From positions 84,863 to 148,862 of the forward strand of contig JBAYUF010000001.1 of the NCBI GenBank assembly GCA_041675205.1: a stretch of 64,000 nucleotides of DNA, read 5' to 3'. A program made the translations under genes and the position numbers. Of the stretch, positions 55,094-60,471 are shown piece after piece. The notes under the pieces are model-generated. The model was given only the letters and a program-made list of their open reading frames with translations, was not told the DNA's origin and did no database searches. The DNA comes from Patescibacteria group bacterium (GTDB lineage Bacteria > Patescibacteriota > Patescibacteriia > GWA2-46-9). How positions within the stretch are numbered: the stretch's first letter is position 1; each line of letters begins with the position of its first letter.

Positions 55094-56107
55094 ATGCGGC
55101 CTACGAGTTATCTTGGATTAGATATTGGCTCAACGAGTATAAAGCTCGTTGAGTTGCGAGCCACCGCTGGCGTGCCTGAGCTAGCAACCTACGGCATGGT
55201 GACCGTACCAACGCTTCCAGCTGCTCGTCAGTATGATACGGGTCAGTTGGCTGCCACTGTAGCCACGTTACTGAAACAAAGCCGAGCAACAGCTCGGGGA
55301 GTGTACAGTGCCTTACCAACAGAATCAGTCTTTACCTCAATCATTACTGTACCGCAGGGGAATGCGAAAGCTGTGGCAGCGGCAGTTCACACGGAAGCCG
55401 CGAAACTGCTTCCTCGGCCAATTGACGAGATGGTGCTTGATCCACAACAACTTAGCGTGAGCGCTGATAAACACTCCGTTCGTATACTGCTCGTGGCGGC
55501 TCCACGCGAGTTGGTTGAGCGATACGATACTATTTGTCGATTGGCCGGAATTGAATTGCTTGGTCTGGAAGTCGAGAGCTTTGCTATGGTGCGTTCCTTG
55601 GTTGGTAAAGACCCTGCTTCGGTAGCGATTGTAGACTTTGGTGCGACAACAACAGACATCATCGTTGTGGCCAATGGGGTGCCAGTTCTTTCTCGCAGTG
55701 TACGCATTGGTGGCCGAGACTTAACTAGTGCGCTGCAGTCGGTGCTGGGCGTTGACGTTGCGCTAGCCGAACAAGCAAAGCGAGATGCTGGTTTGGCTGC
55801 CGGAAACGTTGGTTTGGCTGGTGTCTATAAAAAAACAATTGAACCCGTAGTCCACGAGTTGCGTTACACGCTTGATACCTATTTCGAGCAATCCCAGCGA
55901 CGGGTTGAGAAGATAATTCTCACTGGCGGCTCGTCATTACTGGTTGGGCTTCCTGAATACATTTTTCAAGAGACGGGGTTGCGCACGTTTGTTGGTAATC
56001 CATGGTCTCGGGTTCGCTATCCATTAGAACTTGAGAAGGTGCTGTCAGAAACAGCCGGACAGTTTAGCGTGGCGATTGGTCTGGCGCTCCGACCATTTAA
56101 ATCATAA
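55094..56107 (+). CDS. pilM: type IV pilus assembly ATPase-like protein PilM
   Basis: Actin-like fold start YLGLDIGSTSIKLVEL. ~338 aa from the chosen ATG; the track start 54977 is probably too early. Confidence 0.75.
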   Translation: MRPTSYLGLDIGSTSIKLVELRATAGVPELATYGMVTVPTLPAARQYDTGQLAATVATLLKQSRATARGVYSALPTESVFTSIITVPQGNAKAVAAAVHTEAAKLLPRPIDEMVLDPQQLSVSADKHSVRILLVAAPRELVERYDTICRLAGIELLGLEVESFAMVRSLVGKDPASVAIVDFGATTTDIIVVANGVPVLSRSVRIGGRDLTSALQSVLGVDVALAEQAKRDAGLAAGNVGLAGVYKKTIEPVVHELRYTLDTYFEQSQRRVEKIILTGGSSLLVGLPEYIFQETGLRTFVGNPWSRVRYPLELEKVLSETAGQFSVAIGLALRPFKS

Positions 56108-56113
56108 CGAACT

Positions 56114-57052
56114 ATGGATGTTAATTTCCTGTCTTCTGAACGTCGTAAACGGGAAGTTGAAGAACGTGAACGTTTAGCAAAACAGCTATTGCCAGCTGAA
56201 CTACATGAAGCCGAGGGGCTGTCGAATTCGCCACAATTAAAAACGGTGCGAGCAGTACCGACGAAGACCGAAGCAGAGCCGGCTAAAATTGAATTGAGTG
56301 AAGTCGTGCAGCCAGTTATACCAACGGTGATGCATCCTGCAGCGGTGGCAAGCACCATCAGCATGCATGAGCCTGAGACGCAGCAGGCGAAGCCAGCAGT
56401 AGACCGGTCGATTTCCGTTCCGCCGCCTGTGGCGAAAAAAAATAGTGCTCCACACAGTGCAACAGTCGAGATGGTGCGAGGGCCAGAGGCAAAAAAACAT
56501 AAAACAGGAATGACACGAACCGCCGGAAGGCTCGTCGAATACGCCGCTTTACTTAGTATCGTTGTCGTTGTGTTTGTAAGCGGGGTAGCCATTGGCGTGT
56601 CTATGCGTCGTTCACCAGCACCGGTTGCTCCCGTGGTGTCAGGTATTTCGCTCATAGAACACGAAGCAGCCATGGCCTCGGCTCGAGATGTGCTTCGTCT
56701 CGCGCACGTTGCTTTGATTCAAGAGTCGCTTGATGAATATTGGCGTCAAAATGAAGCTCGCTTTCCAAGCGGCGTTGAAATTGTGCTGGGGACCGACACA
56801 ACGCAGTGCCTGGGTGCGGCCGGTTGGATTAGTAGAGATAGTTGTATTCTTCCAGTTAATCCTTCGGACAATAGAATATATTTGAGTGCCATGCCGCGTG
56901 ATCCGGGTACTGGTACCTACCGGTACACGGTGCTCGAAGCCGGCCGGGCCTATCGACTTGAATTTACGCTTGAAACAGATGCGCCGGGGTTTAAGGCCGG
57001 TCCACAGCAGCGGACGGGCGGCGCTGTGCCAGCAGCGGAAGTTGCGTCATAG
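56114..57052 (+). CDS. bitopic membrane protein downstream of pilM, PilN/PilO-like (atypical: ~135-aa cytoplasmic N-region before the TM)
   Basis: Position after pilM. N-terminus MDVNFLSSERRKRE loosely resembles the PilN INLLP start. Single TM LVEYAALLSIVVVVFVSGVAIGV. Confidence 0.35.
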   Translation: MDVNFLSSERRKREVEERERLAKQLLPAELHEAEGLSNSPQLKTVRAVPTKTEAEPAKIELSEVVQPVIPTVMHPAAVASTISMHEPETQQAKPAVDRSISVPPPVAKKNSAPHSATVEMVRGPEAKKHKTGMTRTAGRLVEYAALLSIVVVVFVSGVAIGVSMRRSPAPVAPVVSGISLIEHEAAMASARDVLRLAHVALIQESLDEYWRQNEARFPSGVEIVLGTDTTQCLGAAGWISRDSCILPVNPSDNRIYLSAMPRDPGTGTYRYTVLEAGRAYRLEFTLETDAPGFKAGPQQRTGGAVPAAEVAS

Positions 57053-57054
57053 CC

Positions 57055-58007: not shown

Positions 58008-58044
58008 AAAGTACACCCCAGAACTTCTGGGGTGTACTTTATTC
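58008..58044 (+). terminator. Rho-independent terminator after the pilin gene
   Basis: aaagtacaccccag-aact-tctggggtgtacttt followed by att. Confidence 0.7.
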
Positions 58045-58057
58045 GTCGTAACTGTTT

Positions 58058-59701
58058 GTGACTGCTAGAATACGATGTATGAGCATAGTACTCGTCAAGG
58101 TGCGGCAGTACGCCATTCGTCATACGTCGAGCATATTTCTTGCTGGCGTCGTCATTCTCGGTGGGGTGCTGCGCGCTATACATCTTGGCACCGAGCCTTT
58201 TTGGGGTGACGAAGCCTTGAGTTTTGATATCGCAACTAATTTTTCAAGTGCCGCTGCGTTAATCGACTACCTCAAGTTAGTTGAAGTGCATCCGCCGTTG
58301 TACTACTTGCTTTTGCAATGGTGGACGGTTTTCGGTGAGGGCGAATTCATTGCTCGGTTACCCTCGTTTATTGCTGGCCTCGGTGTTGTTCTCGCCACGT
58401 ATGGTGTGACGCATTCTTTTTTTAAATCCCGCACAGCGGCAATTGTAGCGGCCTTGATTACTGCGCTCCTTCCTTCACAAATTGAATTTAGCCAAGAGGC
58501 AAGGCCTTACGCACTTTTTACGTTAATCGGTTTAATCACCCTCTGGTGTTACTCCCGGTATCGGCGGTCGGGGAATCGGTATTTTTTGGTTGGTTATGGT
58601 GCCGCGATGCTCGCTGGCCTGTATGTACACTACTCGTTTTTATTCTTTGCGGCTTCTCTGGCTGTGGTGTGGCTCTTTGACGCCGCGTATCCAGAATCCA
58701 GCATTGAAAAGCGGCGCAATTGGTTTCTGGCTTGGTTTTATACGCACGTCGCAATTGCACTTGGGTTCATGCCGTGGCTGAGTACTGTATTTTATAAATT
58801 GTTTCTTGGGGAGTATGAACTATGGGGCGTCGCCAGAAGCATTGGTAATGGCGTACGCTCAGTTAGTTTTCCGAGCGTCGTTAGTGACCAGCTGCTGTGG
58901 CTAAATGATTTTACAAAAGTGGCGCCGGTCGTTACCTTCGCTGTGTTCTTCTGGAAGCTTGTTTTTCTTTTGTGCCTTGCGTACACCGTGCGTAATCTGT
59001 GGCGTCGTGGCGAATTACCAGAAAGTCGAGGGGCAGTGCTTTTGTTGGCCGTCGCCGTATTGTCGCTTACCGGTTTTCTATTTTCACCCCAGTCCATCAG
59101 TTACACGCCCAAGTTGCAGGAGCACATACTCATCAATAGTGTTCTCTTTGCAATGCTCATTGGGTATGCACTGTCGCTTATGGCCGTGAAATTGCGATTG
59201 CTCTGTCTTGCTTTGTTTATCATTAGTACGGTGCCGTTCACTGTGCAAGTCGTCGGGAACGACGAGGTGTGGGATACCCATCATCGCCTGCGGATAGTCG
59301 CCAATTTTATCAACGAATCGTTTCAACCAGGAGACGTCGTTATCACTGAGTCTGCTTTTCTGCGCACTGATATAAATCATTATCTGCGCACCGACATCGA
59401 AACGCATTCCATTTTACCCATTGGCTACTTTGGTAATGATTTGGGACAATCCCGACAGACGCTTGGGTTAGTAGAAAACGAGTCTCAATTTCGTATTTTT
59501 CGTCCGACCAACGCTGCGGTAGTTGGTCAGCTTGAACAGGTATTGGAGCGTGAGCAGGCAAAGCGTGTTTGGTTGGTATTTTTTATCGACCCGAGCACAC
59601 TTACGGTCTGGCTAGAAGCTAATGGCTGGCGGGCTAGCTTTCTTTCCCCAAGTTCGAGCTTGTTACCAGTGAACATGTATACGAAGCGTACACAGTTATG
59701 A
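58058..59701 (+). CDS. GT-C superfamily glycosyltransferase (ArnT/PMT-like, polytopic)
   Basis: ~12 TM segments. An N-terminal first-loop (D/E)E-containing region typical of GT83/GT39. 547 aa. Overlaps pilD (ATGA). Confidence 0.5.
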   Translation: MTARIRCMSIVLVKVRQYAIRHTSSIFLAGVVILGGVLRAIHLGTEPFWGDEALSFDIATNFSSAAALIDYLKLVEVHPPLYYLLLQWWTVFGEGEFIARLPSFIAGLGVVLATYGVTHSFFKSRTAAIVAALITALLPSQIEFSQEARPYALFTLIGLITLWCYSRYRRSGNRYFLVGYGAAMLAGLYVHYSFLFFAASLAVVWLFDAAYPESSIEKRRNWFLAWFYTHVAIALGFMPWLSTVFYKLFLGEYELWGVARSIGNGVRSVSFPSVVSDQLLWLNDFTKVAPVVTFAVFFWKLVFLLCLAYTVRNLWRRGELPESRGAVLLLAVAVLSLTGFLFSPQSISYTPKLQEHILINSVLFAMLIGYALSLMAVKLRLLCLALFIISTVPFTVQVVGNDEVWDTHHRLRIVANFINESFQPGDVVITESAFLRTDINHYLRTDIETHSILPIGYFGNDLGQSRQTLGLVENESQFRIFRPTNAAVVGQLEQVLEREQAKRVWLVFFIDPSTLTVWLEANGWRASFLSPSSSLLPVNMYTKRTQL

Positions 59702-60471
59702 TTATACTAATGTCATTTATTCTCGGGCTTTTCGTGGGCAGTTTTTTAAACGTGCTCATTCTACGAACAGTTGCAGGAGAATCGTTCATCACGGGACGTT
59801 CACATTGTCCGCAGTGTGGGGTGACACTTTCCTTTTTACATATGTTGCCGGTCGTTAGCTACCTGGCGCTCGCTGGTAAATGTGCAAAGTGCCAGTCATC
59901 AATTTCGCTACAGTATCCAGTGGTTGAATTTGTCACGGGTTGCTGTTTTGCGTTACTAGCATCGTCATACGCTCCAGCTGAACTCAGTATGCTCTACCCG
60001 TATCTGCTGAAAGATTTCGTTATTACTATGGGGTTACTAGCACTTTTTGTTTTTGATGCGCGTTGGTATGCGGTGCCCGATGCCGTTGCTTTGCCCGTGG
60101 CAGGCGTAGCTGCGTTTTTGAACATACTGCTCGGTATGCCATGGCGAGCAGTTTTTCTTGGTGCTGCTGTTGGGGCCGGGTTGTACGCCGTTCTTTGGGT
60201 GGTCTCGCGCGGTCGCTGGGTTGGGGACGGCGACATTCGGTTGGGTGCTGTGGTGGGGGCGGCGGTTGGCTGGCCAGGAACGCTCGCCGCACTCTATGTT
60301 TCGTATCTTATTGGTGGCGTGGTGGCTATTGCGCTCGTGGCAACAGGGCGCAAGGAACTTGGTGGTATGCTTCCAATGGGTACATTTTTGATGGCGGCTA
60401 CTTTTTTTGTCTTACTGTTTCCTGAACGCATTGCCGTTGTCACAAATTATTTCCTTTCTGTATGGCACTAA
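59698..60471 (+). CDS. pilD: prepilin peptidase / N-methyltransferase PilD (A24 family)
   Basis: CPQCG … CAKCQ tetra-Cys motif in the first cytoplasmic loop. Polytopic. 257 aa. Confidence 0.8.

Follow-up and report, generated by a model that had tools for sequence, protein, structure and literature searches.

In Pseudomonas aeruginosa, group IV pilins are O-glycosylated by TfpW, an arabinosyltransferase of the GT-C class that is encoded immediately downstream of pilA and that, aided by a GtrA-like protein, modifies several Ser/Thr residues of the pilin from a lipid-linked donor (bioRxiv 10.1101/2020.04.19.049825). A division of labour among a GT2 protein, a GtrA protein and a GT-C enzyme has been described as well (PMC5836110). 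For Patescibacteria, a study of pili predicted O-glycosylation sites only, and named no enzyme (PMC12206443); a literature search for a link between GT39/PMT_2 enzymes and pilins, or for a receiver in Patescibacteria pilus loci, returned nothing relevant. Here we analyse a stretch of 64,000 nucleotides from a Patescibacteria group bacterium (GenBank assembly GCA_041675205.1, contig JBAYUF010000001.1, positions 84,863 to 148,862; hereafter the window), in which a compact type IV pilus locus at 55094-60471 contains a gene for a GT-C glycosyltransferase between the major pilin gene and pilD. The best-supported explanation, to which we would assign a probability of roughly 0.6 from sequence comparison and from analogy with known systems, is that this enzyme is a pilin O-glycosyltransferase. 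The arrangement would represent a new variant of the TfpW idea, built with another GT-C family and occurring in another bacterial radiation.

The comparison draws on contigs that encode orthologues of the GT-C enzyme, together with a scan of one genome per species (18 Patescibacteria loci); these loci, referred to here by number, were annotated by ORF (open reading frame) calling and by BLAST against Pfam-labelled reference genes. Of about 24 other loci, 13 have the orthologue within a type IV pilus locus, either adjoining the major pilin gene or genes or close by (L001, L002, L004, which equals L019, L010, L012, L014, L015, L016, L017, L025, L027, L046 and L048). It follows the pilin gene or genes directly in most of these, with one gene intervening in L015 and L027 and pilD intervening in L012 and L046. 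The typical order of a full locus is pilM-pilN-pilO-x-pilB-(receiver)-pilT-pilC-pilin-GT-C-(GT2/GtrA)-pilD-minor pilins-(ligA). In the window, the GT-C gene starts 77 nt past the pilin stop codon, an arrangement repeated in relatives, and in both L048 and L010 the order is pilin-GT-C-pilD, with the last two genes closely spaced or overlapping. Linkage of pilin and GT-C genes spans Uhrbacteria, Doudnabacteria, Falkowbacteria, Kuenenbacteria and Parcubacteria at 30-40% GT-C identity, and in a neighbour-joining tree the pilus-linked enzymes occur in most deep clades, the window enzyme pairing with that of L010. The window pilin is 61-74% identical to the pilins of the loci with GT-C orthologues, and the GT-C enzymes of those loci are only 33-40% identical.

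Two further genes recur beside the enzyme in relatives. A GT2 gene, for a protein of about 240 aa, adjoins the GT-C gene in 10-11 loci, and four loci have a GtrA-family gene there; these GT2s are nearest, at sub-threshold scores, to AglJ, PpgS and dolichyl-phosphate hexose transferases, and appear to be of a polyprenyl-phosphate-sugar-synthase-like class. An earlier reading of this DNA, made from its sequence alone (the sequence-only reading), had put forward the enzyme as a plausible pilin O-glycosyltransferase, and the linkage of pilin and GT-C genes, along with the GT2 and GtrA neighbours in relatives, gives that proposal strong comparative support.

The six ORFs of the compact locus, all on the + strand, have the coordinates that the sequence-only reading had assigned to them. 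They are given here with two sites on either side of the pilin gene.

55094-56107, + strand: pilM, 337 aa, actin-like cytoplasmic pilus assembly protein (PF11104, TIGR01175)
56114-57052, + strand: N312, a 312-aa bitopic protein that belongs to no Pfam or NCBIfam family
57055-57447, + strand: stand-alone receiver, 130 aa (PF00072, E 1.3e-19)
57492-57519, + strand: promoter-like site upstream of the pilin gene, TTTACG-16-TATGAT with TG, from a consensus scan
57553-57981, + strand: major prepilin, 142 aa, beginning MTIVRKG/FTLIELLVV, with the cleavage site at the slash (N_methyl, E 5.4e-8)
58006-58042, + strand: terminator-like hairpin after the pilin gene, with a perfect 17-bp stem and a 3-nt loop
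58058-59701, + strand: predicted GT-C glycosyltransferase, 547 aa from a GTG start (PF13231, PMT_2, 36.3 bits, above 26.1)
59698-60471, + strand: pilD, prepilin peptidase/N-methyltransferase, 257 aa (A24_N_bact and Peptidase_A24)

Both the ORFs and the Pfam and NCBIfam models agree with the identities previously proposed for pilM, the receiver, the pilin, the 547-aa glycosyltransferase and pilD. PilM scores 159 bits against PF11104 (E 1.9e-46; cutoff 27) and 190.6 bits against TIGR01175 (cutoff 133), and is 52% identical to the PilM proteins of the sister loci L008 and L010. PilD contains the A24_N_bact (PF06750, E 1.6e-28, 99 bits against a cutoff of 23) and Peptidase_A24 (PF01478, E 4.3e-10, 40.4 bits against 26.5) domains, together with four Cys (CPQC...CAKC) and a GDGD motif, so that it qualifies as PilD on both counts; it is 52-57% identical to the PilD proteins of L010 and L008. 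The coupling of the glycosyltransferase gene to pilD can be read directly as an ATGA overlap of stop and start codons, and the overlap recurs in the Uhrbacteria relative L010 (GT-C end at 11665, pilD start at 11662). An alternative ATG start at 58079 would give a GT-C protein of 540 aa, which is the product called by NCBI. A separate assembly from Logan, of run SRR6484325 (L007), has the gene order as well.

The prepilin has all the marks of a type IV pilin: a short basic leader whose last residue is Gly, a hydrophobic helix of about 20 residues, a cleavage site between G7 and F8, a glutamate (E12) that becomes E5 of the mature protein, and scores above cutoff against N_methyl (07963; 32.5 bits, cutoff 21.2) and TIGR02532 (35.9 bits, cutoff 16.3); a GspG-like model reaches 49 bits, below its cutoff. 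Its prepilin motif is the single occurrence in all six frames of the 64 kb. The head of the pilin contains two Cys, is 30% Ser/Thr (25 of 82 residues) and is devoid of Lys and Arg; it would offer many candidate Ser/Thr sites for glycosylation, none of them individually assignable. A comparison of Ser/Thr content between pilins with and without a neighbouring GT-C gene gave no discriminating pattern. That the pilin gene has its own terminator, as had been suggested, is borne out by the 17-bp stem of the hairpin at 58006-58042, whose folding energy as RNA (dG -32 kcal/mol, z -7.7) was matched by none of 200 shuffled sequences, and inspection by eye of the same place in L008 found a G+C-rich inverted repeat followed by a T run. 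The total of promoter-like sites in the region is not above that in shuffled sequences, so the site at 57492-57519 is weak evidence by itself.

What kind of enzyme the GT-C protein might be can be approached through its family, its conserved residues and its predicted fold. Its PF13231 score of 36.3 bits exceeds the gathering score of 26.1 and places it in PMT_2. About 30 full-length orthologues are found at 30-40% identity (E 1e-111 to 1e-69), and generic PMT_2 proteins begin only at E >= 1e-16; the gap sets apart what is, by sequence, a discrete Patescibacteria-specific subfamily. An acidic pair (D51-E52, in a WGDE motif), which lies in the first external loop just after the first transmembrane (TM) helix, is invariant in 31 orthologues, as are R39, P79-P80, R149-P150-Y151 and H191-Y192-S193. 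The AlphaFold2 (AF2) model (pLDDT 89.9, pTM 0.90) has about 11-12 membrane helices and a small external C-terminal domain of mixed alpha/beta structure. When this model was compared with the Protein Data Bank (PDB) by Foldseek, the top 35 matches were all GT-C enzymes, beginning with ArnT (5ezm, E 3e-8, TM score 0.60) and followed by Pmt4, AglB, ALG9, STT3, DPY19, PglB, AftB and Emb. Searches of the PDB by single sequence and by profile matched no solved chain, ArnT included; the sole NCBIfam match was a mannosyltransferase model, below threshold, and no ArnT model was matched. In Pfam, no Wzy_C domain appeared at E <= 0.1 and no TPR family was reported. Judged by sequence and model, the enzyme is thus of the PMT_2/ArnT-like kind predicted by the sequence-only reading, rather than a Wzy_C enzyme. 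Assignment to ArnT itself was rejected, the likeness being one of fold only, at 15% identity; the structural match reflects a fold common to GT-C enzymes and points neither to a role on lipid A nor to membership of that family.

Set against TfpW, as that enzyme has been described, the window enzyme is likewise a polytopic GT-C protein encoded next to the major pilin gene, with an acidic pair (essential or invariant) in the first external loop and with GtrA and GT2 genes adjoining its orthologues in relatives. It differs in belonging to PMT_2, in a fold nearest to ArnT and PMT rather than to Emb, and in a C-terminal domain that is alpha/beta and not TPR; also, Pfam searches of the long ORFs showed no DprE1/DprE2-like genes of an arabinose pathway in the window. 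Its host is a Patescibacterium, a member of a group that is generally regarded as having neither an outer membrane nor lipid A. The three-component systems GtrA/GtrB/GtrC, CsbB-GtcA-YfhO and GtlA-GtlB share the parts list seen in the relatives (a GT2 that loads polyprenyl phosphate, a GtrA-family protein and a GT-C enzyme), but their known acceptors are O-antigen or teichoic acids, whereas the context here points to pilin, and the window itself contains the GT-C component only. The protein O-mannosyltransferases (PMT; the eukaryotic enzymes and actinobacterial Pmt, GT39) are related through the PMT_2/PMT Pfam clan and the DE pair of loop 1, with Pmt4 the second-best structure; they act on Ser/Thr of proteins, as the window enzyme putatively does, but the homology is at the level of the family (36 bits), there is no MIR domain, and the window enzyme falls in its separate subfamily. 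PilO/TfpO and PglL are also pilin-adjacent glycosylation enzymes, and a Wzy_C-like protein with TPR repeats is encoded next to the pilin gene in L015 and L027; the window enzyme, in contrast, has a GT-C fold without Wzy_C, and its pilin is without a C-terminal Ser.

Some of the loci in relatives have further peculiarities. The pilus locus of a Doudnabacteria genome (L012), which has three pilin genes, contains three tandem GT-C paralogues followed by a GT2 (8412-13860). In L015 (1322-3187) and L027 (7973-9889), the protein of 621-638 aa encoded between pilin and GT-C combines an O-antigen-ligase/O-glycosylation-ligase-like (Wzy_C/IctB) membrane domain with PilW-like TPR repeats, and these two loci thus appear to hold two different candidate pilin-glycosylating enzymes. 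In L001, a 23S_rRNA_IVP/bAvd-like gene (4818-5162) lies between pilT and pilC, and a 46-aa N-terminal fragment of pilD and a PaaX_M/Cas2-like gene (8666-9781) lie between GT-C and the full pilD, which suggests that an insertion split an earlier GT-C-pilD junction.

The second gene of the locus, N312, had been read as a PilN/O-like protein. Its product begins with MDVNFLS and continues through a low-complexity cytoplasmic linker of about 130 aa and a TM helix into a pilin-type head with two Cys. Within its family, the linker is variable, rich in Pro, Lys and Ala and 120-170 residues long, and the N-terminus reads MAVNFLS in L010/P0233 (Asp2 to Ala) and MDINLLP in P0234; an invariant Glu (E142) opens the TM helix, where Ala or Pro comes before it and there is no G/F cleavage site. 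The TM helix and head are 29% identical to the window pilin by blastp, and hhalign aligns the N312 family with the pilin family at a probability of 98.3% (E 1.2e-14, 103 columns), the two having in common the two Cys and the motifs RD..R...Q..L..Y...P and FTLE. Against the PilN proteins of related loci, the hhalign probability was 0.3%, so that homology to PilN/PilO is not indicated. What survives of the earlier assignment is the short PilN-type motif at the N-terminus; the TM helix and external domain are homologous to pilin, and the assignment of this ORF to another family, which the sequence-only reading had named as a result that would count against its account of the pilus set, has to that extent come about. 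The PilNs of related loci have a membrane-adjacent (I/V)N(L/F)L motif, and several, including those of L004 and L016, repeat it at the far end of a long N-terminal extension of low complexity, which the N-terminal half of N312 resembles.

N312 is not PilN or PilO; on the strength of these similarities, it is best read as an uncleavable pilin paralogue to which a tether joins a PilN-type peptide. It is like PilN in that its gene directly follows pilM, in its bitopic build and in an N-terminus resembling the PilM-binding peptide of the INLLP type; it is unlike PilN in that some 130 residues separate the motif from the membrane, a pilin head forms the external domain and no pilO comes next. The N-terminal peptide presumably docks PilM, and N312 would most likely stand in for PilN/PilO by anchoring the PilM ring, either to the pilin pool in the membrane or to the base of the pilus. 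One may tentatively go further and suppose that N312 is a new pilus component that replaces PilN/PilO in Uhrbacteria-like lineages as part of a minimal alignment complex, with the receiver and the GT-C enzyme tuning assembly and the surface chemistry of a host-contact pilus; we regard this larger picture as rather doubtful. The architecture is rare: a word-indexed search found one homologue (P0112, 42% identity), an exhaustive HMMER scan of 1.84 billion representatives recovered the full architecture in only four clusters (the window protein, P0112, P0233, which is that of L010, and P0234), and a scan of metagenomes for further N312 loci returned only L049, the same Uhrbacteria contig and 100% identical to L010. 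The AF2 model of N312, built from a shallow alignment (pLDDT 51.7), has a helix at 7-25, disorder at 26-136, the TM segment at about 137-162, a long helix at 177-213 and then strands. A fold search with it gave two pilins as top matches but no significant score, and neither model nor search was used as evidence.

Heads of the same pilin type occur in one to three tandem C-terminal copies in Patescibacteria proteins of 350-800 aa with signal peptides (P0235-P0245), where the motif is RD..R..D..Q.Q.ALELY...YP ... C ... C ... YM..VP.DP..Y.Y ... LE, and some of these proteins also contain TSP3-like Asp-rich repeats; the head domain is therefore reused as a module outside true pilins. The window also encodes two DsbA-like proteins with a thioredoxin fold (13216-13989 and 49193-49891), one of them within a block syntenic with L008 and L010, which fits the conserved pair of Cys that the pilin and N312 each have.

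The third gene encodes a receiver that scores 70.8 bits against PF00072 (cutoff 30.2) and has the complete phospho-acceptor set (D15, D16, D58, S88, Y107 and K110); its best NCBIfam matches are to OmpR- and PleD-class receivers. It had been described as an orphan, a description that does not hold in view of its orthologues in full loci. Identity is 67% with the receiver of L008 and 64% with that of L010; for the receivers of Parcubacteria L027 and Falkowbacteria L016, whose genes lie between pilB and pilT, the values are 48% and 43%. From its distribution, the receiver is a conserved component of pilus loci in this part of the radiation, and because it lies between pilB and pilT in relatives, it would, when phosphorylated by a kinase encoded elsewhere, probably modulate the ATPases. 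Like PilG/PilH, it is a stand-alone receiver encoded with pilus genes and has all the phospho-acceptor residues; unlike them, it has no Chp/CheA-type kinase nearby, and its gene occupies the place between pilB and pilT in relatives. Pfam showed no kinase among the window's long non-shadow ORFs. About 4 kb upstream of the window start, L044 (3159-5163) encodes a HAMP-HisKA-HATPase kinase of 418 aa, preceded by a 253-aa polytopic membrane protein and without an adjacent response regulator; as a partner of the receiver it is a speculative candidate. In Doudnabacteria, the receivers between pilB and pilT (L012, 3623-4015; L017, 5786-6160; L025, 5616-5990) have Glu at the phospho-Asp position and a degraded acidic pocket, and are possibly constitutive pseudo-receivers. 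A blastp match between the receiver and a segment of PilB (E 0.002 in a tiny database) was dismissed as noise.

Taken as a whole, the locus is best explained as a Patescibacteria type IV pilus locus that has been reduced without a change of gene order, keeping the pilin-maturation side and lacking the motor. Relative to the full loci, it lacks the pilN core, pilO, pilB, pilT, pilC and the minor pilins. Pfam searches of the long non-shadow ORFs found no pilB, pilT, pilC, pilQ, pilN, pilO or minor pilin gene in the 64 kb, nor did tblastn of the 64 kb with PilB, PilT, PilC, PilN, PilO, minor pilins, GT2 and GtrA from related loci return any. The earlier statement that pilB, pilT, pilC and pilQ are missing from the window is upheld by the Pfam scan and, for the first three, by tblastn as well. 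Absence of pilQ is expected, because the bacterium is, on the established view, without an outer membrane. There were no pilus genes in about 8.3 kb upstream (L044) or about 3 kb downstream (L007). Candidatus Uhrbacteria PFET01000001.1 (L010; also L049) has exactly the order pilM-N312-receiver-pilin-GT-C-pilD-ligA, and L008 has it minus GT-C; among named relatives that share the locus, Candidatus Uhrbacteria bacterium CG10_big_fil_rev_8_21_14_0_10_48_11 is the nearest. Shared flanks include RecG, RadA, DsbA, ClpB, HtpX and LemA upstream and ligA, gatC and gatA downstream. Across the three genomes with the compact locus, the proteins are 42-74% identical and all ORFs are intact.

If the GT-C enzyme is a pilin O-glycosyltransferase, the prepilin would be inserted into the membrane, PilD would cut it after Gly7 and methylate Phe8, and the enzyme, on the outer face, would move a monosaccharide from a polyprenyl-phosphate-sugar to Ser/Thr residues in the head of the pilin. 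A GtrB-like GT2 would synthesise the donor and GtrA would flip it, both having their genes outside this window, and the glycosylated pilin would then be polymerised by PilB, PilC and PilT encoded elsewhere. Several observations weigh against this scheme. Neither a GT2 nor a GtrA gene was found anywhere in the 64 kb by Pfam or tblastn, and pilB, pilT and pilC were not located in this genome, whether in the window, in its flanks or by a profile search for PilB (8 PilBs, 7847 matches), of whose best 120 matches none could be placed on this contig. An acceptor motif in the pilin could not be defined, and because a strong hairpin stands between them, the pilin and GT-C genes may lack co-transcription. 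For N312, the model is of low confidence and the fold search was not significant, and the case for PilM binding consists only of the resemblance of its motif to INLLP-type PilN termini. About ten GT-C orthologues lie outside pilus loci (L006, L011, L013, L018, L020-L024 and L026), some of them next to GlmS or to only a GT2. In L008, which shares the locus, the pilin is 73% identical and no GT-C gene stands between the terminator and pilD; the enzyme is therefore dispensable or can be encoded elsewhere. These last two observations are also what would be expected of a general envelope glycosyltransferase that merely tends to lie near pilus genes, for which pilin is not the specific substrate, acting either in a PMT-like manner on many secreted proteins or, like YfhO and GtlB, on teichoic-acid-like polymers. 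The PMT_2 family is functionally broad, and sets of GT2, GtrA and GT-C glycosylate lipoteichoic and wall teichoic acids (LTA/WTA) in Gram-positives (PMC5836110). We nevertheless consider such an enzyme unlikely, if worth keeping in mind, since a position next to or close to the major pilin gene has been kept across GT-C proteins of 33-40% identity and in most deep clades, since the pilus locus of L012 contains three tandem copies, and since L048 and L010 share the pilin-GT-C-pilD order. It is far less probable, and indeed hardly credible, that the enzyme is of the ArnT type, with a membrane lipid as the acceptor of aminoarabinose or some other sugar: in structure it matches ArnT (5ezm) best over its full length, and the name given by JGI to one homologue is ArnT-like glycosyltransferase, but protein-acting GT-C enzymes score nearly equally in Foldseek, the context is that of a pilus and not of lipid modification, and Patescibacteria are considered on established knowledge to lack the lipid A and outer membrane concerned. 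An ArnT-type enzyme, which the sequence-only reading had named as a finding that would overturn its proposal, was not indicated by NCBIfam model, single-sequence or profile comparison.

A different kind of doubt attaches to the locus itself, which might be a decaying remnant from which no pilus is made, with N312 an accidental fusion. Its colinearity with full loci, from which exactly the pilN core, pilO, pilB, pilT, pilC and the minor pilins have gone, is what decay could leave behind, as is the failure to find motor genes in the window, upstream, downstream or among the best 120 PilB matches. But the same reduced set is intact in three genomes at 42-74% protein identity, and conservation extends to the catalytic and phospho-acceptor residues, to the signal of the pilin and, in N312, to the motif, the Glu of the TM helix and both Cys, with a fourth N312 relative, P0234, retaining the canonical MDINLLP. 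Such a pattern of conservation indicates purifying selection, and we therefore regard decay as improbable. Intact ORFs and conserved residues in three genomes argue instead for selection, and so for motor genes located elsewhere; scattered pilus loci have been reported in one cultivated Saccharibacterium, TM7x (PMC12206443).

Outside the pilus locus, the window contains a complete 16S rRNA gene (1904-3386) that stands alone, with no 23S or 5S gene in the 64 kb, an unlinked rRNA arrangement; the nearest tRNA-Ile gene (5582-5658) is on the opposite strand. Just downstream of the 16S gene, a 290-aa ORF on the minus strand (3580-4452) resembles UDP-glucose/GDP-mannose dehydrogenases and has the N-terminal and central domains only; it may be truncated. 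The interval 22571-38898 encodes a CBM_4_9 protein of 2821 aa, then proteins of 1072 and 474 aa without a family, a PrgI-family protein (35895-36326) and a VirB4/TraG-type ATPase (37042-38898), and is by its gene content a type IV secretion-like or conjugation-like cluster. This cluster, the solitary 16S gene and the large number of ORFs without an assignment are in keeping with a member of the Patescibacteria.

In cultivated Saccharibacteria, type IV pili have been shown to attach the cells to their hosts; such pili are conserved across Patescibacteria, and glycans on pilins have been shown to serve phage evasion in Pseudomonas. A GT-C enzyme embedded in a pilus locus, and accompanied in relatives by GT2 and GtrA, would supply a concrete, testable pathway of pilin glycosylation for a large uncultured radiation; it might affect how these cells recognise hosts and escape phages. 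A pilin paralogue tagged for PilM suggests that a pilin can serve as the starting material for a rebuilt alignment module, and the conserved receiver would provide a handle on pilus regulation in these minimal cells. Current understanding is not overturned by these findings; what they offer are specific, testable hypotheses for the pili of uncultured episymbionts.

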